From NCBI GenBank assembly GCA_963767925.1, contig CAVYGB010000002.1, positions 1,216,001 through 1,280,000 of the forward strand: a stretch of 64,000 nucleotides of DNA. Direction: 5' to 3'. Below are positions 53,161 to 64,000 of this stretch, piece by piece. Under the pieces are notes generated by a model. That model was not told where the DNA came from. It searched no databases and worked only from the letters and a program-made list of their open reading frames with translations. Both the position numbers and the translations under genes were made by a program. The DNA comes from an uncultured delta proteobacterium (GTDB lineage: Bacteria; Myxococcota_A; Polyangia; Fen-1088). Position 1 is the first letter of the stretch, and every line of letters begins with the position of its first letter.

Positions 53161-55317
53161 ATGGCGAGCCGACCAAACGCAGGAGGACCAGGACCCGGCT
53201 CCATGCTGCAGCAAGGTGACGTGCGCGGCCTCGTCCGCAAGTATTCCGACGTCGGGCTGGCGCTGGTGGTCGTGGCGATCGTCGGGATGATGATCATCCC
53301 GCTGCCGACCTTCATCCTCGACCTGCTCATCGCGATCAACATGACGGTGGCGGTGACCCTGCTGCTGGTCGCCATCTACGTGAGCGAGGCGCTGAAGATC
53401 GCCACCTTCCCCACGCTGCTTGCTGCTCACCACTCTGTTCCGGCTGGCGATCGAGGTGTCTGCCACCCGCCTCATCCTGCTGCAAGGCCGACGCCGGCCA
53501 CGTGATTCACGCCTTCGGCAACTTCGTCGTCGCCGGCAACCTGGTGGTGGGCGCCGTCATCTTCTTCATCCTCACCATCATCCAGTTCATCGTCATCTCG
53601 AAGGGCTCGGAGCGGGTGGCCGAGGTGGGGGCCCGCTTCACCCTGGACGCCATGCCCGGCAAGCAGATGTCGATCGACGCCGAGCTGCGCGCCGGCCACA
53701 TCGACCACAACGAGGCCCGCCGCCGCCGCAGCATGCTGTCCCGGGAGTCGCAGTTCTTCGGCTCGATGGACGGCGCCATGAAGTTCGTCAAGGGCGACGC
53801 CATCGCCGGCATCATCGTGCTGGTCACCAACATCGTCGGCGGCCTCATCATCGGCATCGTGCATGCGGGGGATGGAGGCCGGCGAAGCCGCCCGCACCTA
53901 CACCATCTTGACCATCGGCGAGGGGCTGGTGGCCCAGATCCCGGCCCTCATCATCTCCACCGCGGCCGGCATCATCGTCACGCGCGTCGCCTCGGAGGAG
54001 GAGGGCGGCAACCTCGGCGCCGACATCGGCAATCAGATCCTGGGCCAGCCGAAGGCCCTGATGGTCTCCGCCGCCATGTTGATCCTGCTGGCCCTCGTGC
54101 CAGGCATGCCCAAGATTCCCTTCCTCGTCCTCTCGGCGCTCATCGGGACGGTGGGCTACCGTCTGATGAAGGCGGAGAAGGCCAAGGCCGCCGCCCCCGC
54201 CGGACAGGCTGCAGGCGCTGCCGCTCCGGGCGCGCCCGCGGGGGCGCCGCCGCAGGGCAAGGAGAAGGCCCCCGGCGCCAAGGCCGATCCCCCCTCCCCC
54301 GTCCTCACCCCGATCGCGCTCGAGCTGTCGACCGCGCTCGGCAACGCCTTCAACTCCGACGGCAGCGGCGGGCGCTTCGTCAAGGAGCTGCTCCCCCTGC
54401 TGCGCGAGCGGGTGTTCAACGAGCTCGGCATCCCCCTGCCGGCGGTGCGCATCCGCCCCGGCATCCCCGGCCTGGCGGCCAACGCCTACGCCATCCGCCT
54501 GCAGGAGGTGGTGATGGGCAAGGGCGAGCTGACCGTGGGGGGCGGGCTGGCCGCCGAGACCCCCGAGCGCCTGGCGGAGATGGGCATCCGGGGGCAGCCC
54601 GGGCAACTCCCCGAGGGGGGCCCCGCCACCTGGATCGCGGCCGCCGACCTGCCGCGCGCCAAATCGGCCGGCGTGCAGGCGCTGGGGATCGAGGAGGTCG
54701 TGGTCCGGCACCTCATCCACCTGGTGCGCCGCTACGGCTACGAGTTCATCGGCATCCAGGAGACCCAGGTGCTGATCGACGGGCTCGAGCGCACCCACCC
54801 GGCGCTGGTCCGGGAGGTGGTGCCCAAGCTTGTCTCCCCCGTCCTGCTGACCGACGTGCTCAAGCGGCTGGCCGAGGAACAGGTCTCGATCCGGGGCCTG
54901 CGGGAGGTGCTGGGCGCGCTGGCGGAGTGGGCCCCGGTCGAGCGCGATCCGGTGGCCCTGACCGAACACGTGCGTTCCGCCCTGCGGCGGCAGATCACGT
55001 CGAAGTACGCCGGCCCCAGCGGGGCGCTGCCGGTCTACCTGCTCGACCCCATGATCGAGGAGACCATCCGGGAGTCGATCCACAAGACGCAGACCGGCAG
55101 CTACCTGGCGCTCGAGCCGGCCCTGTCGCGCGACATCCTCGCGGCGGTGGGCCGGACCGTGAGCGGCGGGAGCAGCGCGGTCATCCTCACCAGCGCCGAG
55201 ATCCGCCGCTACGTCCGCCGCCTTGTCGAGTCCGAGTACCCCCAGCTCGCCGTGCTGTCGTACCAGGAGCTGTCCCCCGAGACCCAGCTCCAGCCCCTCG
55301 GCCGGATCAAGGTCTAG
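53161..55317 (+). CDS. sctV: Type III secretion export-gate protein SctV (FHIPEP FlhA/LcrD family); frameshifts near 53420, 53490 and 53863
   Basis: [91 protein letters not shown]. Confidence 0.92.
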
Positions 55318-55341
55318 CACCCCGCACGAGGTGAGCGCAGA

Positions 55342-55508
55342 CCCCTCACCCCTCCCTCTCCCCGCTGCGCGGGGCGAGGGCGAACAATTTGCCAGGTGCC
55401 CCGATCATCTTCCGAGCAGCGAATCCATCTCGGACTTGCCGTGATTTCCGCGCCTCGTTGTCCGTTCGCCCTCGCCCCGCGGCAGCGGGGAGAGGGAGGG
55501 GTGAGGGG
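55342..55508. repeat. Short copy of the REPIN-like element, in opposite orientation to 51085-51777
   Basis: Same inverted REP-like ends (55342-55385, 55464-55508) with similar inner flanks and about 80 bp of interior. Confidence 0.8.
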
Positions 55509-55580
55509 TCTCCGGCGGGGTTCGGAGCCGGTGCAGGACGAGACTGCGCGAGGGTTCACGGTTCGGGGGCAAGGAGTGTC

Positions 55581-58391
55581 ATGATGACGGGAGTCATGCG
55601 TCCATTCGTGCGCGCTTCCTGGGTTTTCGGAACGTCGATCGCCCTGCTGGCCGGGCTGGGCTGTGCCTCGGCCGGGCTGCCGGATCAGCCGGTGCTCAAG
55701 GACTACAACCCCGACCAGTGGGTCGGCACGCCGAAGAGCGGGCTGCGGATCATCGTGCAAGAGGATCACAGCTCGCCGCTGGTCACGGTGGTCTCGACCT
55801 TCGGGGTGGGGGCCAAGAGCGATCCCAAAGGGGTCGAGGGGCTGGCCCACTTCGTCGAGCACCTGGTGTTCCGCTCGCGCCCGGGCGGCGGCGAGCAGAA
55901 GGTCTGGGACTACCTCAAGCAGATCGCCGTCGACTTCAACGCCACGACCTCCTGGGACTTCACGAACTATTACATCACCACCCACAAGGACAACTTCCCC
56001 CTGGTGATGCAACTCGAGGCCTGGCGGCTGGCCCGCACCATCGACGGCGTGACGCCCGAGGTGTTCGCCACCGAGAAGGAGGTGGTCCGCAACGAGCTCC
56101 GGCAGCGCTGGGAGACCACCGTCGGCAACAAGCTGTTCGACCTGATCTTCGAGCCGATCTTCCCGGTCGACCACCCCCTGCGCCGGCCGGTCGGCGGGAG
56201 CCACGACTCGCTCAACGCCGTCACGCTCGATCACGCCAAGGCCTTCGTGAAGGAGCACTACCGGCCCAACAACACCACCCTGGTGATCGCCGGGGACATC
56301 ACCCCCGAGGAGGTCCGCAAGCACCTCGGCATGTGGCCGGCGGAGGTGCTGTTCGGGCCGGGCGGGCCCGAGGGCCCCGAGGTGCAGCCCGCGCCCCGGA
56401 TCAGCCAGAGCCCCGCCCCTGCGGTGCCGCCGATCCAGAAGACGGAGCTGCAGCGGCACAAGGGGCCCATCGAGCAGCCCCTGCTGGTGCTGGCCTGGTC
56501 GCTCCCCGGCGGGCTGCGGGGCCAGGACACCATCGCCCAGTTCGCGGCCGGTCGCCTCAACCTGGCCATCGGCGGCCTCGACATGCGCGAGGAGGACGAC
56601 ATCCTCTCGGCCAGCGCGGGGGTCCAGAGCTTCGCCGACGCCTCGATCATGACGTTGTTCGCCGAGCTGCGCCCGGGCGCCGATCCGGAGAAGGCCCGCA
56701 AACGCTTGCTCGACGTGCTGGTCAACGCCTGGTCGACCGAGCTGGGGCGGCTGCAGACCGAGGCCACCCGCTGGGGGACCGCCACCAGCTTCCTGCGCCG
56801 CTCGGCCAGCCCGCTGGCCAGCGCGACCCAGGTCGGGTTCCACATGGCCGCGACCGGCAAGACCGCCTACTTCAAGGATCACCTGGAGGAGCTGGCCAAC
56901 GTCCAGTCGGGCGCGGTCATGCAGTTCGCCTACAAGTGGCTCACCCGCGAGCGCGCGGGCGCGGTCTACTTCGAGCCGGAGAGCGAGCAGATGCCCCAGG
57001 TGGTCGGGGGCGGCGGGCAGGCGGGCGGCGTGGCCTCGGCGGGCGCGCCCAAGAGCCACGACATGAGCCGGGGCATGACCCGCAACGCGGCCGAGCTGAC
57101 CTCCGACAAGCTCAAGAAGATGCTGCAGGCGCCGGGGATCGCCGGGGTCCCGAGCTTCAAGCTGGCCAACGGGCTGCAGGTGTTCGTCATCGAGCAGAAG
57201 TCGACGCCGATGGCCCAGATCCTCCTCGACCTGCGCGGCGGCGACGCCAGCACCAAGCCGGTGGGCGCGGCCAGCATGGCCGCCCGGCTGGCCCAGCCGA
57301 GCTGCCCCGAGCACCGCGGGCTCAGCGAGGTGGGCGGCTCGCTCGGCGCCAGCTTCGGCCTCACCAACTCGAGCCTGGGGGTGAGCGTGCTGTCGGGCAA
57401 CCTGGCCAACGGGCTGGCCGCCCTGCGCGACCGGGTGAGCTGCATGCAGGTCAGCGAGGAGATGTTCCTGCACGTCCCGCGCATGTTGCAGCAGTCGGGG
57501 CGGGTGTTCGAGCGCTCGGCGGTGCGGCCCGAGTTCATCGCCTCGAAGCGCTTTTACGGAGAGCTCTACCCCGGGCACCCCTTCGGGGAGGCCTCGTTCG
57601 TCAACCCGGCCAGCCTGAAGGACGTGCGCCACCAGGACGCCCAGGCCTTCGTGTCGAGCCACTTCCGGCCGGACAACGGGGTCGCCGTGGTGTACGGCGA
57701 CGTCTCGCTCAGTGACGTCAAGGCGCTGGGCGAACGCTACCTGGTCAACTGGCAGGGCGGCGGCGGCATCGCCATGAACACGCCGCCGGTGCCGGCCGGC
57801 CCCAGCGAGCGCAAGCTCCACCTGGTCAACCGGCCCAAGGCCACCCAGGCCACGGTGATGCTGGGCTGCCGCCTGGCGACCGTCCAGCCCGACCGGGTGC
57901 CCGCCTACGACGTCCTGCGCACGCTGGCCAGCGAGAGCGCCTGGGCGCTGCGCGAGGAGTGGGGCGCCACCTACGGCATCGGAGCGGGCGTGAGCCGGCG
58001 GCCGGACAACTCGGCCGAGCTGGTGCTGCAAGGGGCGGTGGAGAACGCCCAGGTCGGCAAGGCGGTGAGCCGGCTGCTGGGGGTGGTCAAGGAGCTGGGG
58101 ACCGCCACCGTGGACGAGCCGTTCTTCCTGAGCACCCGCTGGGACGTGGGGCGGACCTTCATGAGCTCGCTGGCCACCTCGGGGGCCAAGGCCAGCGCCA
58201 TCCTCAGCGCCATCGAACACGGCTGGCCGCTCGACGTCTGGGACAAGTACCCGGAGAACCTGGCCAGCACCACCCGGGACACGATCAAGGAGATCATGGC
58301 TCCCTGCGTGGGCAAGGAGGTGGTGGCCATCGTGGGCGACGCCGCCGTGCTGGGCCCCCAGCTCGAAAAAGAGGGGCTCAAGCTCCAGTAG
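55581..58391 (+). CDS. M16 (pitrilysin/insulinase) zinc metallopeptidase, probable lipoprotein
   Basis: LAGLGC lipobox, GLAHFVEHLVF inverted zinc motif, NATT, EKEVVRNELRQR, second degenerate M16 half. Confidence 0.92.
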   Translation: MMTGVMRPFVRASWVFGTSIALLAGLGCASAGLPDQPVLKDYNPDQWVGTPKSGLRIIVQEDHSSPLVTVVSTFGVGAKSDPKGVEGLAHFVEHLVFRSRPGGGEQKVWDYLKQIAVDFNATTSWDFTNYYITTHKDNFPLVMQLEAWRLARTIDGVTPEVFATEKEVVRNELRQRWETTVGNKLFDLIFEPIFPVDHPLRRPVGGSHDSLNAVTLDHAKAFVKEHYRPNNTTLVIAGDITPEEVRKHLGMWPAEVLFGPGGPEGPEVQPAPRISQSPAPAVPPIQKTELQRHKGPIEQPLLVLAWSLPGGLRGQDTIAQFAAGRLNLAIGGLDMREEDDILSASAGVQSFADASIMTLFAELRPGADPEKARKRLLDVLVNAWSTELGRLQTEATRWGTATSFLRRSASPLASATQVGFHMAATGKTAYFKDHLEELANVQSGAVMQFAYKWLTRERAGAVYFEPESEQMPQVVGGGGQAGGVASAGAPKSHDMSRGMTRNAAELTSDKLKKMLQAPGIAGVPSFKLANGLQVFVIEQKSTPMAQILLDLRGGDASTKPVGAASMAARLAQPSCPEHRGLSEVGGSLGASFGLTNSSLGVSVLSGNLANGLAALRDRVSCMQVSEEMFLHVPRMLQQSGRVFERSAVRPEFIASKRFYGELYPGHPFGEASFVNPASLKDVRHQDAQAFVSSHFRPDNGVAVVYGDVSLSDVKALGERYLVNWQGGGGIAMNTPPVPAGPSERKLHLVNRPKATQATVMLGCRLATVQPDRVPAYDVLRTLASESAWALREEWGATYGIGAGVSRRPDNSAELVLQGAVENAQVGKAVSRLLGVVKELGTATVDEPFFLSTRWDVGRTFMSSLATSGAKASAILSAIEHGWPLDVWDKYPENLASTTRDTIKEIMAPCVGKEVVAIVGDAAVLGPQLEKEGLKLQ

Positions 58392-58409
58392 CCGGCGCTC
58401 GTAGCAAGC

Positions 58410-59669
58410 ATGATCACGAAGACCCGCGCCGGCGCCGTGAACCTGGCGGTCCTGGTGGCCGCCCTCGGCTACTTCGTCGACATCTACGACCTCATCCTGT
58501 TCAGCGTGGTGCGGGTCAAGAGCCTGCAGGGGCTGGGGGTCGAGGGCGGGGCCCTGCTCGAAAAGGGCCTGTTCATCCTCAACATGCAGATGCTCGGCAT
58601 GCTGGTGGGCGGGATCTTGTGGGGCGTGCTGGGCGACCGGCGGGGGCGGCTCTCGGTGCTGTTCGGGTCGATCATCCTCTATTCGCTGGCCAACCTGGCC
58701 AACGGCATCCCGGACAAGCTGGCGGTCTGGACCGGCGGGGGGCTCGACGCCATCCAGATGTACGCGCTGATCCGCTTCGTGGCCGGGGTGGGCCTGGCGG
58801 GGGAGCTGGGCGCCGGGATCACCCTGGTCAGCGAGTCGATGCGCAAGGAGACGCGCGGCTACGGGACCACCATCGTCGCCACCGTGGGGATCTGCGGGGG
58901 CCTGGTGGCGGTGTTCGTGGGCAAGACCGCCGACTGGCGGGTGGCCTATTTCATCGGCGGCGGGATGGGGCTGGCCCTGCTGGTGCTGCGCCTCGGGGTG
59001 ATGGAGTCGGGGCTGTTCCAGAGCGTGCGGGCCACGGCCGTGTCGCGCGGGAACTTCCTGCACCTGTTCCGCAGCGCCGCCCGGGCCCGCCGCTACCTCT
59101 CGGTGATCCTGGTCGGCGTCCCAATCTGGTACGTGGTGGGGATCCTCATCACCTTCGCGCCCGAGCTGGGGCGGGCGATGGGCATGACCCGGCTGCCCAC
59201 CGGGCCCGACGCAGTCGTCTCGGTGTATGCCGGCCTGGTGGTCGGAGACCTGGCCAGCGGCCTGCTGAGCCAGGTGCTGCGCACGCGCAAGAAGGTGCTG
59301 GGCGGGTTCATCGTCATGACCGCCCTGTTCGTCGCCTTGTATTTCACCCTGGCCTCCCGCTCGCTGCCCATCTTCTACGGGGTGTGCGTCGGGCTGGGCC
59401 TGGCCATCGGCTACTGGGCGGTCTTCGTCAGCATGGCCAGCGAGCAGTTCGGCACCAACCTGCGGGCCACCGTCACCACCACCGCCCCCAACTTCGTGCG
59501 CGGCGCCGTGGTGGCGGTGACCTTCGCCTTCGAGCACCTGCGCGGGTCCCTCGGCGTCACCGGCGCCGCCCTGGCGGTGGGCGCCGCCACCCTGGTGCTG
59601 GCGCTGATCGCCCTGGCCAGCCTGCCCGAGACCTTCGGCCGCGACCTCGACTTCGTCGAGCCGGACTGA
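58410..59669 (+). CDS. MFS transporter
   Basis: ALGYFVDIYDL, GVLGDRRGR motif A, RFVAGVGLAGE, EQFGTNLRAT, LPET. Confidence 0.95.
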   Translation: MITKTRAGAVNLAVLVAALGYFVDIYDLILFSVVRVKSLQGLGVEGGALLEKGLFILNMQMLGMLVGGILWGVLGDRRGRLSVLFGSIILYSLANLANGIPDKLAVWTGGGLDAIQMYALIRFVAGVGLAGELGAGITLVSESMRKETRGYGTTIVATVGICGGLVAVFVGKTADWRVAYFIGGGMGLALLVLRLGVMESGLFQSVRATAVSRGNFLHLFRSAARARRYLSVILVGVPIWYVVGILITFAPELGRAMGMTRLPTGPDAVVSVYAGLVVGDLASGLLSQVLRTRKKVLGGFIVMTALFVALYFTLASRSLPIFYGVCVGLGLAIGYWAVFVSMASEQFGTNLRATVTTTAPNFVRGAVVAVTFAFEHLRGSLGVTGAALAVGAATLVLALIALASLPETFGRDLDFVEPD

Positions 59670-59687
59670 CCGGCGCCCTCAGACGCC
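59616..59687 (+). repeat. 72-bp direct repeat, left copy (island boundary)
   Basis: GCCAGCCTGCCCGAGACC...CCCTCAGACGCC identical to 62243-62314. Confidence 0.95.
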
Positions 59688-59751
59688 AAACGTCCCTCGA
59701 TGGGGGCGAGAGCTCGGACGAGGAGGACTACCTCGGTCCGCAGGCCGGCGT

Positions 59752-60402
59752 TCACGGAACTACAACGGGAGGTCGCCAGTCGCCCTCGGTCCCCACATTC
59801 ATTCCGAGCTCGACGTCTCCTTCGTACGCCGGAAGTGGGCGGCCAACTTGGCTGTCGAGGGAGAGCTCCGGACCCAGCACTTTCATGAAGCAATCGTGTA
59901 CCTCCTCGGGTACCCCACCGCCATCTTTCATACTGAGCACGGGGTCGGAGAGGACGGCCCCCTCAGGCCGCATTCGCGCCTTCCAAACCACTTTCATTTG
60001 GAGGGGCGATTCGTTGACCGAGGAGCATTGCTGCCGGGTTCCGGCCGCAACGCGGACGATCAGCGATTGGTGGAGGTTGTCCACGCTACGATGACGGAAG
60101 CGGAGCTTCTGATAGGGAGTCATCGTGCGCGGGATTGCATCCACCGAGGGCGCCGGGGGGAGCGCCTGTGCCTGCGCCAGCGCGCGCAAAGCCTGGGCGA
60201 CCTGGGGAGGCCCGATCGTCGCACCCGGGTACGAGCCCGGACCCCCCGCCTCAAAGGTGCTCGGCCCGCCAACGGTTGTTCTCGCGACGCCCGCTTCCGG
60301 CCTTCCTTGGGACAGCTGGAAGGCGACCGCACCGGAGACCAAGAATACGGTTGCCACGGCGATCCGAAACGTCGAGCGGCGCGAAGGAGTCGAAGTTCGC
60401 AC
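59752..60402 (-). CDS. Single-pass/secreted hypothetical protein (216 aa)
   Basis: GGGAG RBS before GTG, N-terminal hydrophobic segment FRIAVATVFLVSGAVAF, two Cys in the C-terminal domain. Confidence 0.7.
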   Translation of the reverse strand: MRTSTPSRRSTFRIAVATVFLVSGAVAFQLSQGRPEAGVARTTVGGPSTFEAGGPGSYPGATIGPPQVAQALRALAQAQALPPAPSVDAIPRTMTPYQKLRFRHRSVDNLHQSLIVRVAAGTRQQCSSVNESPLQMKVVWKARMRPEGAVLSDPVLSMKDGGGVPEEVHDCFMKVLGPELSLDSQVGRPLPAYEGDVELGMNVGTEGDWRPPVVVP

Positions 60403-60413
60403 GTGTCGGCTCC

Positions 60414-61148
60414 CTATTCTGGAAGGTTAACCTTGCCGAGCGTCTTCGATAGCTGGGCCTGCCCCGAGCGTACTTTTGCGAAGAACGAACGGCGAGCGGC
60501 CCGGTTCTGGTGCTGAAAGCTCGCGGGATCGCTGACGTCGTACTTGTCCGCCAACCGCCTCTCCTCGACCGCGTACCCCTCCTTCGGAGGGTATACGAGG
60601 TACACACTCGGTTTCCCGTCTACGCTCGTCGTTTTGAGCGTGGATGCGACCCGGATCGCGGCAAGGGCGGCGTTCACCTTTCGGTCCAGATCGCCCCCCA
60701 GCGTGGGCCAGGTGACAAGGCAAGTGCGCGTTCGGCACTCGACCTTTAAATCTCGCGCCTCCGGCACCAGAACTAGAAGATCGGCGAGACCGTCGGCGAG
60801 AGCACCCGTCTCCATCGCAGAGGCCCAGGGCCCATTGCGCGGTTCTCGGTCGAACAACTCGCTGGCGCTCGCCCCGAGCCTCATGAGAACGCGAGGATCG
60901 TAACCCGGCTTGACCGGATCCTTCTCCATGTCGGCGGGGAGCTCCGCCAGGCGAGGGCCGCAATCCCGGATGGGTCCATGTAGCCCACCAGTCTGTGGCC
61001 CGGTCGCGCTGCCGGCGGCCAGTGGAGCTGACCGCGGGAGTACCTCGGACCTATCACTAGTTAACCGTCGCGCCAACATCCCGCCGGCCGTGCCAGTAAT
61101 CGCGGCCAAAACCAGCCATGCCGAAGTGGAACGCCAGCTTGAGCTCAT
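60414..61148 (-). CDS. Single-pass/secreted hypothetical protein (244 aa)
   Basis: ATGA overlap with the upstream peptide gene; AWLVLAAITGTAGGML anchor; EPRNGPWASAME...VECRTRTCLV motif. Confidence 0.72.
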   Translation of the reverse strand: MSSSWRSTSAWLVLAAITGTAGGMLARRLTSDRSEVLPRSAPLAAGSATGPQTGGLHGPIRDCGPRLAELPADMEKDPVKPGYDPRVLMRLGASASELFDREPRNGPWASAMETGALADGLADLLVLVPEARDLKVECRTRTCLVTWPTLGGDLDRKVNAALAAIRVASTLKTTSVDGKPSVYLVYPPKEGYAVEERRLADKYDVSDPASFQHQNRAARRSFFAKVRSGQAQLSKTLGKVNLPE

Positions 61149-61417
61149 GAGCAGCACACAATTTGACAGGTGCTGTCGCAGTGACAACGGAAATACCCTT
61201 CTGGCTCGCCCTCGGGGCCACACTCCGGATATTCAGTCTCACTGGTAAAGCAGTCGCAGCCGCTGCCGCCACAACTGCTCACGCAGTCGTGATCCGAACA
61301 CATATCGCCACCAGAGTCCCCTGAGCATGCCAGGGTCTCGGGAGTAGACCCTAGGTAAACCCCAGTTCCAGCGGCGATCGCGATACCCAGCGGCAGGAGA
61401 AGTTTCGAAAGCATCAT
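61145..61417 (-). CDS. Secreted cysteine-rich peptide (90 aa; 12 Cys in the last 60 residues)
   Basis: GGAGGT RBS 5 nt before ATG; signal-like MMLSKLLLPLGIAIAAGTGVYLG...TLA; CSGDSGGDMCSDHDCVSSCGGSGCDCFTSETEYPECGPEGEPEGYFRCHCDSTCQIVCCS. Confidence 0.8.
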   Translation of the reverse strand: MMLSKLLLPLGIAIAAGTGVYLGSTPETLACSGDSGGDMCSDHDCVSSCGGSGCDCFTSETEYPECGPEGEPEGYFRCHCDSTCQIVCCS

Positions 61418-61661
61418 GGTGTGACCTCCGTCTTTGGATCGCGATTCCGACTGCGGTCCGCGGTCCAGGTTCGAGAGAGACCATCGTCGTCGCTTGCTGA
61501 TCTCACAATCCTCCAAAGCGCTGTCAGCCGGACGCCGTCAGCTTGCTGGGGTGCTACCACCACTAAGTACCTCACCAGTATTTTACGTCGTCATGCTTCA
61601 TTTCCTTTGACGTGCGAATGTCTCGACGAGACAATAATTTACGTCATGCGAAACCTTCGCC

Positions 61662-62024
61662 GTGCCGCCCCTGATGCAAGCGTCCCAACGTTCACCCAGG
61701 GGCAAACGACTCGAACCGACCTCGCCCACGGACGCCACATGCCCGCCCCACTTTGCATCGGCGCTGACCGTAGAAAACGCGGCCGTGGAGATGGGCCGGC
61801 GCTATGGGTTGAGCAAGAGACAAATTGAGATCGTGGCTCGGATCGGATTGGGCCTTCGAATCAAGAGCATCGCCGTGGAGCTCGACCTGGACCGCCGGAC
61901 GGTCACAGAACAGGTCTTCCGCGCCTGCGCCCGAACCGGCTCTAAAGATCGCGAGGCTCTTGCCGGTCGGCTGGTCGAGATTCTGCTGGACCTGGCAAAC
62001 CGAATGCGCGGCAACGATTTGTAG
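61662..62024 (+). CDS. Stand-alone LuxR/GerE-type HTH transcriptional regulator
   Basis: YGLSKRQIEIVARIGLGLRIKSIAVELDLDRRTVTEQVFRACARTG; start uncertain. Confidence 0.78.
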   Translation: MPPLMQASQRSPRGKRLEPTSPTDATCPPHFASALTVENAAVEMGRRYGLSKRQIEIVARIGLGLRIKSIAVELDLDRRTVTEQVFRACARTGSKDREALAGRLVEILLDLANRMRGNDL

Positions 62025-62242
62025 GGGCTCACATCTGGCCGGGGATCACCTGGTAGCATTGTTCGTGAGCGAGACGGAGGACTGGTGGGTGGCTTGCTTC
62101 AGTCGGCGGTGGGATTGGGGCTGGCCCCTGCTGGTGCTCCGGCCAAGAGGTGAAGCCGGGGCTGTTCCAGGAGTGCACACCACGACGGTGTTGCGGGGAC
62201 CTTCCTGCGCCTTTCCACAGCGCCGCTCGGGCCCCGGCGACC

Positions 62243-62314
62243 GCCAGCCTGCCCGAGACCTTCGGCCGCGACCTCGACTTCGTCGAGCCGGACTGACCGG
62301 CGCCCTCAGACGCC
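62243..62314 (+). repeat. 72-bp direct repeat, right copy (island boundary)
   Basis: Identical to 59616-59687. Confidence 0.95.
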
Positions 62315-63262
62315 CTTGCGCACCAGCTCGCTGAACAGCGGGGTCGACAGGTAGCGCTCGCCGCTGTCGGGCAGGACGGTGACGATGTAGCGCCCTTCGT
62401 TCTCCGGGCGGGCGGCCAGGGCCAGGGCCGCCGCCAGCGCGGCTCCGCTGGAGATGCCGCACAGGATGCCCTCCTCGCGGGCCAGGCGGCGGGCGCAGGT
62501 GAAGGTCTCGTCTTCGGTCACGGTGAGGACCTCGTCGATCACGCGGCGGTCGAGGATGGGGGGCACGAAGCCGGCCCCGATGCCCTGGATGAGGTGGTTG
62601 CCCACCGGGCCGCCGGAGAGCACCGCCGCCTTGGCCGGCTCGACCGCGACGATGCGCACGCCCGGCTTGCGGGCCTTGAGCACGTCGCCCACCCCGGTGA
62701 TGGTGCCGCCGGTGCCGACCCCCGCCACGAAGATGTCGACGGCGCCGCCGCTGTCGCGCCAGATCTCCTCGGCGGTCGTGCGGCGGTGCACCTCGGGGTT
62801 GGCCGGGTTGGTGAACTGCCCCAGGGTGACCGAGCCCGGGATCTCCTCGCGCAGCTTGTGGGCCCGGGCCACCGCGTCCCGCATCAGGGTCCCGGGGGTC
62901 GTGACCACCTCGGCCCCGAAGTAGCGCAGCAGCGCCGCCCGCTCGGTCGACATGCGCTCGGGCATGGTGACGATCAGCCGGTAGCCGCGGGCGGCCGCCA
63001 CGAACGCCAGGGCGATGCCGGTGTTGCCCGAGGAGGGCTCGATGATGGTCGCGCCCGGCAGCAGCTCGCCCCGGCGCTCGGCCTCGGTGATCATGGCGAT
63101 GCCGATGCGGTCCTTGACGCTGCCGCAGGGGTTGCGCGCCTCGAGCTTGCCGAACAGCCGCGCCCGCAGGCCGCGCCCCACCCGCGACAGCTCGACCAGC
63201 GGCGTCCCTCCGGCCGTGTCGACCACGCTGCTCAGCGTTTTTCCCGATTGGTTGTCGTCCAT
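62306..63262 (-). CDS. cysK: Cysteine synthase A
   Basis: [56 protein letters not shown]. Confidence 0.96.
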
Positions 63263-63281
63263 GGTGACCTCGGCGCGTCGC

Positions 63282-64000
63282 TCAGATCGTGTAGTCGCCC
63301 AGGAAGATACGTGCCTCCTGCAGGTCGGCCAGCACCCGATCCCCTTCCCGGATGCTCAGGGCGTCGAGCTCGGCCTTGCTCAGCTCGACGTTCATGGTAC
63401 CGCCCTCGGGCAGGCGCAAGGTGACCTTTACGTAGGCTCCCACGAAGGCCAGCCGCTCGACCTGGGCCATCGACACCGGCTCGCGCTCGGGCTGCGGGTC
63501 GGGCGCCTTGCTCAGCTTCACCTCGTGGGGGCGGACGAAGGCCCGCAGCTCCGCGCCGTCGGAGGCGCCGGGCGGCGCGGCCATGGCTCCGGCCAGCGCG
63601 CCCACCGTGGTCCGGCCGTTTTCGACCCGCCCCTGCAGCAAATTGGCCCCGCCGACGAAGCGGGCCACGAAGGGGGAGACCGGGTGGTCGTAGATCGCGC
63701 TGGGGTCGCCGAGCTGCTCGACCCGCCCCTCGTTCATGACGACCAGGGTGTCGGCCAGCTCCATCGCTTCCTCTTGATCGTGGGTCACCAGCACGGTGGT
63801 GACCGGCGGATGTTCCGTGCTGCGCGCGCGCTCCTCGTGGAACCGGCGCAGCCAGGCCCGCAGCGAGACGCGCACCTGGGCGTCGAGGGCCCCGAACGGC
63901 TCGTCGAGCAGCAGCAGGCGCGGCTCGGTGGCCAGCGCCCGGGCGAACGCCACCCGCTGGCGCTGCCCGCCCGACAGCTCGCGGGGCATGCGCGCGCCCA
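63282..64000 (-). CDS. cysA: Sulfate ABC transporter ATP-binding subunit with TOBE domains (5' part outside the window)
   Basis: [48 protein letters not shown]; directly upstream of cysK. Confidence 0.88.

Follow-up and report, generated by a model that had tools for sequence, protein, structure and literature searches.

A foreign islet of 2.6 kb lies between an MFS transporter gene and convergent cysK in the window (the whole 64,000-nt stretch of DNA analysed here), and two identical 72-nt copies of the MFS-cysK junction enclose it. The insert sits between collinear direct copies of its target, with the full MFS gene plus 18 nt on the left and MFS nt 481-688 and 1207-1278 on the right. Here and at a second island in the same genome, each target copy is continuous with the chromosome outwards, which is the arrangement that defines a Campbell insertion. 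We put about even weight on the reading that host recombination, and not an enzyme of the islet's own, inserted it through homology (a Campbell-type duplicative insertion), and that recombination between the repeats can remove it again.

On this reading, the islet is a variant of already known recombinase-free islands. Most genomic islands are recognised by an integrase and a tRNA target, and small islets without either are usually left unexplained. The flanks of this islet keep a readable history: a long duplication arose earlier and decayed, and a short block of it was kept identical. Should host recombination by itself suffice to put such islets in place, keep them and take them out, gene flow among close relatives would require no dedicated mobility genes and would escape island-finding tools.

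Direct repeat, flanking genes and foreign core

The repeat search returned one two-copy family, whose members are 72 nt long, 100% identical and 2627 nt apart from start to start. Each comprises the last 54 nt of the MFS gene and, after a 9-nt spacer, the 9 nt that end cysK. According to the ORF list, the MFS gene stops at 59669 and cysK at 62306, and both are intact (Table 1). The MFS orthologue of a same-genus relative (G001) shares 81% DNA identity with the gene in the window. The genome itself (G000) is a metagenome-type assembly of 13 contigs with 5.03% contamination, and no third copy of the 72-nt repeat was found in it (9.34 Mb, 83.8% complete). The 38-nt core of the repeat had no match in metagenome contigs or in viral contigs, and its only match among 185,579 species genomes is the empty site of the same-genus relative. 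Exact direct repeats of at least 30 nt, 0.3-60 kb apart, form 444 pairs in this genome, including 42 of at least 72 nt to which the islet pair belongs; long direct repeats are not rare here, yet few enclose low-GC DNA. The 72 nt fold no better than shuffled sequences (z +0.69 to -1.20), so nothing points to a structural constraint on the repeat.

The site also occurs without the islet. In G001:C519 the islet is absent, the overlap between the MFS match and the cysK match is the repeat, and the alignment runs across the junction; in G012:C541 the two genes lie 31 nt apart, again without it. Within the islet core, GC3 is 0.61-0.73 in the islet genes vs 0.97-0.98 in MFS and cysK, and the cargo is foreign by composition. 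The matches listed in the genomes of 40 relatives include none to the core, and further MFS or cysK relics were not found in it. Searches of the islet gave no transposase or recombinase domain; three of its four ORFs have no Pfam family, and the fourth has a weak LuxR-type HTH. Contig C2 holds 25 matches to the tyrosine recombinase family PF00589, the nearest at 1,691,129, about 415 kb off (serine recombinases were outside the genome-wide search). There are no tRNA or tmRNA genes in 55000-64000 and no Rfam matches at gathering level in 59000-63000. When the first 163 nt were compared in inverted orientation with each candidate right end, the top match scored 14-15, vs a shuffle mean of 16-17.

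Altogether, these results agree with the sequence-only reading, which had described a cassette in a perfect 72-bp repeat made of 54 nt of MFS, 9 nt and 9 nt of cysK, with both host genes intact and no recombinase or tRNA target. The foreign composition and the lack of transposon ends support it as well. The empty MFS-cysK allele that it proposed to look for in relatives is present in both G001 and G012.

Transposon target-site duplications are 2-15 bp long and go with terminal inverted repeats and the need for a transposase. The islet is like a transposon insertion in its direct target duplication on both sides of the insert. We rejected a transposon or insertion sequence on three grounds: no terminal inverted repeats, no transposase, and a duplication that was once at least 798 nt long. 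An integrase-borne island or prophage was also rejected, as the islet has no recombinase gene and its target no tRNA or tmRNA.

Table 1. Features of the islet and its flanks (positions in the window)
Feature	Position	Strand	Remarks
MFS transporter gene, intact	58410..59669	+	ORF; PF07690 66.6 bits vs cut-off 33.4; last 54 nt inside left repeat
Left 72-nt direct repeat	59616..59687	.	MFS nt 1207-1260, 9-nt spacer, 9-nt relic of the cysK end
Islet core, foreign composition	59688..62032	.	2345 nt; GC 0.627
Third operon gene, 216-aa protein	59752..60402	-	N-terminal membrane anchor; two conserved Cys (alignment)
Second operon gene, 244-aa membrane-anchored protein, unnamed family	60414..61148	-	ATG overlaps the stop of the peptide gene as ATGA
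First operon gene, 90-aa precursor	61148..61417	-	Hydrophobic leader; 13 Cys within the C-terminal ~60 residues
Divergent intergenic region	61418..61661	.	Lowest GC of the islet, 0.545; one promoter-like site, 61607-61635 (+)
Small LuxR/GerE-type HTH gene	61662..62024	+	120 aa; 77 aa if started at ATG 61791
Decayed MFS pseudogene fragment	62033..62242	+	Homologous to MFS nt 481-688; fused to right repeat
Right 72-nt direct repeat	62243..62314	.	Last 9 nt are the true cysK end
cysK (cysteine synthase A), intact	62306..63262	-	TIGR01139 410.3 bits vs cut-off 350.95

Decayed MFS fragment and second island

The 210 nt to the left of the right repeat are derived from MFS, a feature missed in the first reading. 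This fragment corresponds collinearly to MFS nt 481-688, has the orientation of the gene and joins the right repeat directly, MFS nt 689-1206 being missing through a 518-nt deletion. The alignment has 169 of 217 columns identical, with 32 mismatches and 11 indel events, and frameshifts and an in-frame stop interrupt the fragment. Compared with the MFS genes of G000, G001 and G019, it has identities of 0.779, 0.673 and 0.681, respectively. It shares states private to the G000 gene (vs G001, G012, G019 and G028), and no closer MFS paralogue was found in its own genome. The mismatches are distributed 9/10/13 over codon positions 1/2/3 and lean from GC to AT, 14 of the 32 being G>A or C>T. Judged from these changes, the fragment is evidently a true pseudogene in neutral decay, derived from the MFS gene of its own lineage.

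Because this collinear, decayed fragment abuts the right repeat, the 72 nt are the one end that is still identical in an older duplication (0.8 kb or more) and thus not a one-step target duplication. The earlier claim of a single recent insertion with a 72-bp duplication is overturned by the fragment, which reveals the older duplication of at least 798 nt. At the substitution rate of the pseudogene, 72 identical bases would have a probability of about 4e-6, and the step from 78% to 100% identity coincides exactly with the deletion joint. Such perfection beside a decayed fragment means that recombination between the repeat copies is needed, and the perfect identity points to probable homogenisation or re-integration, not simply to youth.

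The second island lies on the same contig, where C2:588778-589270 and 602806-603298 are copies of a 493-nt repeat with 3 mismatches (99.4%), enclosing 13.5 kb at GC 0.66 with another Cys-peptide operon. This repeat comes from the interior of a UvrD-like helicase gene, which the island splits and which is contiguous in G001; PF00580 positions 1-270 fall in the left ORF, and positions 168-270 plus UvrD_C in the right one. Such a layout is what one crossover with an internal fragment of a gene classically produces. All 3 mismatches lie at most 36 nt from a repeat end ((72/493)^3 = 0.003), which would be the expectation for conversion of the core. The right joint carries a 107-nt filler, including 33 nt copied from 2.8 kb upstream (E=1.8e-8), and the island has an inner 96-nt repeat pair of 95% identity; filler and inner pair point to repair or template switching more readily than to a clean crossover.

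The 72-nt and 493-nt repeats have no common motif above shuffles, which argues against one site-specific system for both islands. Flanking duplications are absent at four other cassette loci of this genome (C1, C12, C2b and C2c), and none is clear at 15 loci around the cassette copies of relatives, so the repeat layout is not general to the cassette family. The proposal that cassettes are bounded by duplications of their own insertion sites thus holds at the second island and fails at those four loci.

Possible routes of insertion

In the Campbell-type reading, foreign DNA would have been placed between two direct copies of the target after the split from the same-genus relative, the duplicated target starting no later than MFS nt 481, ending 9 nt within cysK and measuring 798 nt or more. 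Exactly such a layout would result if a circle with a piece of the target recombined with the chromosome by one crossover. MFS is completed by the left copy and cysK by the right one, so that nothing would be lost. The redundant right MFS copy would then decay and lose 518 nt, leaving the last 72 nt as the only uninterrupted homology whose recombination could yield a viable product. Exchange between the 72-nt copies, either by conversion or by loop-out and re-entry of a 2627-nt circle, would keep them identical while the adjoining fragment decays, and recombination from repeat to repeat would remove the islet, leaving the tight MFS-cysK junction of the relatives. We infer the crossover mechanism, the homogenisation and any present-day mobility from this arrangement. 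Several points count against the model: reads gave no circle junction, empty site or strain polymorphism, the other cassette loci examined have no clear flanking duplication, the second island has its filler and inner repeat pair, and the assembly is of metagenome type. Gene conversion of a generic kind would also be expected to act on the longer 208-nt block no less easily than on the 72-nt block, and the model needs the extra assumption that only exchange within the 72 nt gives a viable product. It also leaves the circle's first gain of a target piece without account.

A one-off repair accident is an unlikely but serious alternative. A fork or double-strand break would have been mended by end joining or template switching, with capture of foreign DNA and re-copying of about 0.8 kb of MFS; the right copy would have decayed, and a later break there would have been repaired from the left copy, deleting 518 nt and rewriting the last 72 nt, with the islet now fixed. 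The sharp joints, the lack of visible microhomology at the deletion joint, and the absence of a recombinase and of element ends suit this account, as does an identity boundary at the deletion joint, the outcome to be expected if a break was repaired with conversion on one side only. Templated filler is characteristic of end-joining or template-switch repair, and the 33-nt patch in the filler of the second island may speak for it as well. However, the accident would require two separate rare events at one site, it would leave it to coincidence that one genome has two independent islands sharing cargo family and layout, and the near-identity of the 493-nt repeat, with mismatches only near its ends, suggests continuing exchange. 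Less probable again is a reading in which the 72 nt are att sites of a recombinase encoded elsewhere and the islet is a stripped, CIME-like integrative element mobilised in trans or in cis, its attP holding the 3' ends of both convergent genes and making integration harmless. Direct repeats around foreign DNA that rebuild gene ends do look like attL/attR, a uniform att core would be expected, and the 25 tyrosine recombinase matches might act in trans; CIMEs are defined by the loss of integration and transfer genes, with attL and attR retained (PMC6323972). Against this reading stand a repeat without a third copy in its own genome, in viral or in metagenome contigs and matched among species genomes only at the relative's empty site, a target that is not a tRNA, and a contig whose nearest tyrosine recombinase match is about 415 kb away. 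Neither the collinear MFS fragment nor the motif-unrelated 493-nt repeat is expected of a short att core.

We consider it very improbable that one repeat copy, or the perfect identity, is an assembly or polishing artefact from a mixed population. The genome is metagenome-like (see the completeness, contamination and contig number above) and read support is thin: one 151-nt contig joins the repeat to the left end of the islet (59619-59769) and two span the LuxR/pseudo-MFS joint (61908-62058 and 62031-62181), all with 0 mismatches. No contig crosses the right junction (62242/62243) in three runs holding 7-8% of the sampled words, and the same runs gave no circle junction, empty-site read or strain polymorphism. 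The expectation of reads over both junctions was therefore realised on the left and not on the right. Yet the 151-nt contigs over the left junction and the LuxR/pseudo-MFS joint come from two different runs, the window sits within a 2.26-Mb contig, the collinear decayed fragment with intact flanking ORFs is unlike a mis-join, and the second island has a matching layout.

The Campbell-type reading has a laboratory counterpart. Insertion-duplication of this kind, by a single crossover of a non-replicating circle with a target fragment, is used for gene disruption in myxobacteria. The islet is like it in having its insert between direct target copies, with expected loss by recombination between them; a 3'-terminal fragment keeps the genes whole, as at the islet, and an internal fragment leaves two truncated copies, as at the UvrD-like island. 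Unlike a laboratory insertion, the layout is natural, holds natural genes and has one copy that has since decayed. In IS26-type translocatable units, a circle of cargo plus one repeat integrates at or next to a resident copy, and host RecA suffices. Their cargo also ends between two direct copies, but the IS26 repeat is an insertion sequence with its own transposase, whereas the islet repeat is an ordinary piece of host genes.

Among natural islands, the microcin H47 island of Escherichia coli spans 13 kb, has no recombinase and has long imperfect direct repeats, and it excises as a circle and re-integrates via host functions (PMC5426353). The islet is likewise a small chromosomal secreted-peptide island with long direct repeats, no recombinase and a precise empty site. 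The H47 repeats are imperfect and form four homology blocks, the cargo is unrelated, and excision was shown by PCR and is RecA-independent, whereas the islet is known from sequence alone (PMC5426353). Unlike the H47 repeats, those of the islet are copies of two host-gene 3' ends and, per the decayed relic, once measured at least 0.8 kb. The CIMEs of streptococcal ICEs also lack integration and transfer genes (PMC6323972), and the direct repeats of the islet could be attL/attR. CIMEs are, however, ICE-derived, and their att site, recognised by the integrase of a known ICE, mostly lies where a single gene ends (3'). For the islet repeat, the searches above found no cognate element or third site, and the 493-nt internal-gene repeat of the second island is not att-like.

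A wider proposal, which we regard as doubtful, is that in this Myxococcota lineage such islands form a recombinase-free class, each with a portable piece of its own chromosomal target as homology. They would enter, leave and move among conspecifics by nothing but host recombination and shuttle fast-evolving secreted Cys-rich peptide operons (possibly bacteriocin-like or for kin recognition), their repeats evolving in concert while older, longer homology relics decay.

Cargo of the islet

The cargo is a three-gene operon next to a small LuxR-type gene; the operon encodes a secreted 13-Cys peptide and two proteins with membrane anchors. The 90-aa peptide has no second copy in its own genome and shares 45% identity with a peptide on metagenome contig L050, with 12 of the 13 query Cys in identical columns. 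The gene at the same position as that of the 216-aa protein on L050 has a product 32% identical to it; the 216-aa protein has no Pfam or NCBIfam family. Our guess, at low confidence, is that the cargo may be a bacteriocin-like or kin-recognition peptide with membrane partners.

The LuxR-type ORF stops 8 nt before the MFS-derived fragment. It matches GerE PF00196 at E=7.3e-4 (19.5 bits, below the cut-off of 23.5), the PedR model at E=8.8e-6 (below cut-off) and six NCBIfam LuxR-type models at E of about 9e-6 to 1e-2, all below their own cut-offs. The gene has no paralogue in its own genome. Of the family of LuxR plus Cys-peptide cassettes that had been suspected, the Cys-peptide operons are indeed multi-copy, but LuxR has no paralogue at the other cassettes.

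The three-gene module is unnamed, and its central, 244-aa protein belongs to a family that is present in public data yet has no Pfam or NCBIfam model. An AlphaFold model of this protein (mean pLDDT 80.1) gave no clear fold match to solved structures. Residues Y83, E102, R104, W108, E113, C138, T140 and C143 are invariant in the family. A single-protein search found 8 matches in its own genome, where the family totals 11, and the family is expanded in the genus, with 10-11 matches in each of two genomes. In public data, it comprises 1165 cluster representatives at E<=1e-3.

The MFS-cysK junction and its 72-nt repeat

The islet, a stretch of foreign DNA at the junction of an MFS gene and cysK, is flanked by a 72-nt direct repeat present in two copies that are 100% identical and spaced 2627 nt apart. 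The MFS stop codon lies in the left copy and that of cysK in the right; each copy therefore joins the last 54 nt of MFS, through a 9-nt spacer, to the last 9 nt of cysK, and neither gene is truncated. The repeat search and the ORF list thus bear out the sequence-only reading, which had described a perfect 72-bp duplication with both host genes intact. The gene identities are firm (MFS against PF07690, 66.6 bits, cut-off 33.4; cysK against TIGR01139, 410 bits, cut-off 351).

Coordinates of features at the islet (window positions)
Feature	Position	Strand	Remarks
MFS gene	58410-59669	+	ORF list; 3' end within left repeat copy
Left repeat copy	59616-59687		72 nt
Operon gene 3	59752-60402	-	216-aa membrane-anchored protein; start 11 nt past stop of gene 2
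Operon gene 2 (central)	60414-61148	-	244-aa membrane-anchored protein; ATG overlaps peptide stop as ATGA
Operon gene 1	61148-61417	-	90-aa precursor, hydrophobic leader, 13 Cys
LuxR-type helix-turn-helix gene, small	61662-62024	divergent from operon	scores under family cut-offs
Right repeat copy	62243-62314		72 nt
cysK	62306-63262	-	ORF list; 3' end within right repeat copy

The source genome (9.34 Mb in 13 contigs, 83.8% complete), in which the window occupies C2:1216001-1280000, contains no third copy of the repeat. A 38-nt repeat core matched nothing in metagenome or viral contigs; among species genomes, its sole match was the empty site of the same-genus relative. The repeat folds no better than shuffles, and every part of it is free of constraint in one copy, if not in both. 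Local alignments for an extra cysK relic downstream of the left repeat, and for a relic of MFS nt 1-480 inside the islet, fell within the shuffle range, and both candidates were rejected.

The empty MFS-cysK allele that had been proposed for relatives was found. In the same-genus relative (contig C519), MFS matches at 81% and cysK at 84%, the two matches overlap by one repeat length, and an islet-free junction made from the window sequence aligns there without interruption; in a second relative (G012) the two genes are 31 nt apart. Two others (G019 and G005) carry an additional cysK-like gene between them. No match among those listed for 40 relatives covers the islet part of the query. The islet core has a GC content of 0.627, and GC3 is 0.61-0.73 in its genes versus 0.97-0.98 in MFS and cysK. 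Domain, tRNA/tmRNA, and Rfam searches upheld the further claim of no recombinase and a non-tRNA site: the islet encodes no recombinase or transposase domain, and neither a tRNA or tmRNA gene nor an Rfam match at gathering level lies around it. It also has no terminal inverted repeats beyond those of shuffles.

A decayed MFS fragment beside the right repeat

A search of the source genome with the islet matched 62049-62234 to the middle of the MFS gene (80%), and local alignment pairs 62033-62242 with MFS nt 481-688, stopping exactly where the right repeat starts. Since this fragment adjoins the repeat, MFS nt 689-1206 are absent between them, and the left edge of the perfect block is the joint of a 518-nt deletion. 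Of the 217 alignment columns, 169 are identical; the differences comprise 32 mismatches and 11 indel events, and the fragment contains frameshifts as well as an in-frame stop. Mismatches are spread over codon positions 1/2/3 as 9/10/13, and 14 of the 32 are G>A or C>T, a pattern of neutral decay in a GC-rich genome. Diversity-generating (adenine-directed) mutagenesis was rejected because the mismatch spectrum is not adenine-specific.

In a multiple alignment with four relatives, the fragment has states unique to the MFS gene of the source genome, to which it is also most similar (identity 0.779, versus 0.673 for G001, the same-genus relative, and 0.681 for G019); the source genome holds no nearer paralogue. 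Thus, the fragment is an old copy of the lineage's own MFS gene. The comparison indicates that it was copied after the split from the same-genus relative, and the original duplication, at least 798 nt long, began at MFS nt 481 or upstream of it and reached 9 nt into cysK. Given the rate of substitution in the fragment, a run of 72 identical bases has a probability of ~4e-6. Together with the absence of constraint and of a fold, this means that the 72-nt block is either younger than the duplication or kept identical by exchange. Perfect identity had earlier been taken to imply a recent event; the identity of the block stands, but a single-step age does not, since the decayed fragment records an older duplication of at least 798 nt. 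A 48-aa chimeric ORF (62150-62296) begins in the fragment and continues into the intact MFS end within the right repeat; it is probably not a gene.

A second island and the origin of the flanking duplications

A genome-wide scan of the source genome for exact direct repeats yielded a second island, outside the window (C2:588778-603298), in which C2:588778-589270 recurs as C2:602806-603298 (493 nt, 3 mismatches). These repeats flank 13.5 kb of DNA (GC 0.66) with another Cys-peptide operon, an HTTM gene, a double thioredoxin/DsbA gene, and three GT87-like membrane proteins; its transposase content is an ISL3 transposase fragment only. The 493-nt repeat comes from the interior of a UvrD-like helicase gene, which is contiguous in the same-genus relative and here is split into two overlapping truncated ORFs (left, PF00580 1-270; right, 168-270 plus the C-terminal domain). 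Around the cassette of this island (C2a), 78%-identical segments 7.7 kb apart were rejected as a site duplication, because both are intact GT87-like membrane-protein genes, paralogous to each other, within the island; the true flanking repeat is found outside them. Between the 72-nt and 493-nt repeats there is no common motif beyond shuffles, and we take their common left boundary (CCTG/GC, the slash marking the boundary) as chance.

We give about an even chance to a homology-driven, Campbell-type duplicative insertion of the islet, with the surviving 72-nt homology kept identical by inter-copy exchange. A single crossover-type insertion would duplicate the MFS-cysK target around the islet, exchange between the two 72-nt copies would maintain their identity, and a recombination event between these copies would excise the islet exactly. 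The layout of the second island is, from its sequence, what one crossover with a fragment from inside a gene would be expected to give. All 3 mismatches between its repeat copies fall no more than 36 nt from a repeat end (probability 0.003 by our arithmetic), a clustering that seems unlikely by chance and such as conversion of the core would give. A one-off repair accident with conversion afterwards is an unlikely but serious competitor, and the second island also has features of this kind. An inner pair of 96-nt direct repeats (C2:589271-589366 and 602603-602698, ~95% identical, 2 indels) has one copy right after the left helicase copy, and the other is separated from the right helicase copy by a 107-nt filler (602699-602805). 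The final 33 nt of this filler, which looks like templated filler at a joint, match C2:585990-586022 at 97%, in a large gene 2.8 kb upstream. The pair and the filler resemble the traces of repair or template switching more than those of a clean crossover.

Less probable still, the 72 nt may be attachment sites for a recombinase acting in trans, as in CIMEs, the nearest named class for the islet (PMC6323972); contig C2 has 25 tyrosine-recombinase matches, the nearest ~415 kb from the islet. The nearest described case is the microcin H47 island, likewise without a recombinase and with long flanking repeats (PMC5426353). An assembly artefact is very improbable. Parts of the stretch are present in three soil-metagenome runs only, all of one study, and read contigs of 151 nt match without mismatch at 59619-59769 (repeat into islet) and 61908-62181 (LuxR-type gene into MFS fragment). 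The reads support two of the three joints; at a coverage of 7-8% of sampled words, no contig spans 62242/62243. No empty-site or circle joint appeared among the reads, whose depth is far too low for this to weigh either way.

The sequence-only reading had also envisaged LuxR plus Cys-peptide cassettes bounded by duplications of their own sites. The second island agrees with this for the duplication, but no flanking duplication was found at the four other cassette loci of the source genome (C1, C12, C2b, and C2c), and the LuxR-type gene has no paralogous counterpart there, being unique to the islet. When empty sites for the C1 and C2b cassettes were sought in the same-genus relative, synteny proved broken and its contigs too short to tell. 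The surroundings of 15 family members in six other genomes gave three weak flanking-repeat matches and no clear target duplication. Together, the four loci, the unique LuxR-type gene, and the 15 loci argue against flanking duplication as a general rule for cassettes.

Several other repeats were observed. In one relative (G024 C5:104428-115322), a non-coding direct repeat of 191 nt (91%) surrounds 10.5 kb of lower-GC DNA that holds a family member and a Cys-containing ORF; it may be a target duplication or paired paralogous upstream regions. Of the remaining low-GC segments with flanking repeats, the scan placed some at integrase genes (C9, C8); the others amount to an insertion sequence flanked by tandem-repeat arrays. 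In this last case, 1.7 kb of low-GC DNA (C2:283860-285660) is bounded by a 45-nt repeat, which was rejected as it consists of 18-nt tandem-repeat arrays (unit GGCACTACTTGAAGAGCG) around an IS5-like transposase gene. A short element (27-50 nt, 84-100% identity, direct and inverted) occurs at 55333-55508, upstream of an M16 peptidase gene, and again 10 and 23 kb downstream, beyond the window (C2:1281320-1281475 and C2:1294491-1294643). Its copies thereby enclose the entire region; it is possibly a REP-like intergenic repeat.

The cargo operon and its central protein family

The three minus-strand genes of the islet form an operon. A metagenome contig (L050, 1.35 kb) has all three in the same order (protein identity 45%, 48%, and 32%), and 12 of the 13 Cys of the peptide fall in identical columns; by this comparison, the three are evidently real genes under selection. 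The ATGA overlap of the Cys-peptide stop and the next start (61145-61148, minus strand) suggests translational coupling of the two genes. In the low-GC divergent intergenic region, two direct copies of TTTACGTC (within 61579-61649, by eye), both with TCATGC in the next few bases, bracket the sole promoter-like site (61607-61635), and could be an operator for the LuxR-type protein. Our guess is that the cargo is a secreted disulfide-rich peptide with membrane partners. A literature search on cysteine-rich peptide clusters in myxobacteria gave nothing pertinent among 10 of 64 matching papers, and a protein atlas returned unnamed clusters only (score 0.80 for the peptide, 0.91 for the central protein, the product of the second operon gene).

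The central protein family has invariant Y, E, R, W, E, C, T, and C positions, matches no Pfam or NCBIfam model, and comprises 1165 cluster representatives (E<=1e-3). It is present in 11 of 61 genomes of the taxonomic family, with 11 matches in the source genome and 10 in the same-genus relative. A pattern scan of species genomes found no close relatives of the central protein, and viral contigs held none; L050 was the one metagenome contig with a relative, and a set of 5.8 billion proteins gave four matches, three of them non-self (51%, 48%, and 30% identity). The AlphaFold-type model is a confident prediction (mean pLDDT 80.1). Foldseek against the PDB found no solved fold at E<=0.001, and in a wide VIA search the best hits, in a range rated common, were small alpha/beta periplasmic domains (PulL, PilO, EpsM; best Z 4.7).

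At least four other loci in the source genome have the order Cys-rich peptide, family member, further gene. The third place is taken by the second anchored protein, as in the islet, at three of these and by a DsbA-like gene at the fourth (C2c), and one of the four has HTTM and DsbA-like genes alongside. At C12:52799-56710 the central gene has a further copy, in a low-GC island and ~3 kb away from a partial tyrosine-recombinase match (C12:56468-56710); no ORF for a Cys-rich peptide was seen there. Beside two cassettes (C2:591487-593124; C12, 554-aa ORF) there is a ~550-aa membrane protein without a Pfam family, with the motif LP.QDLPQHL near its start.
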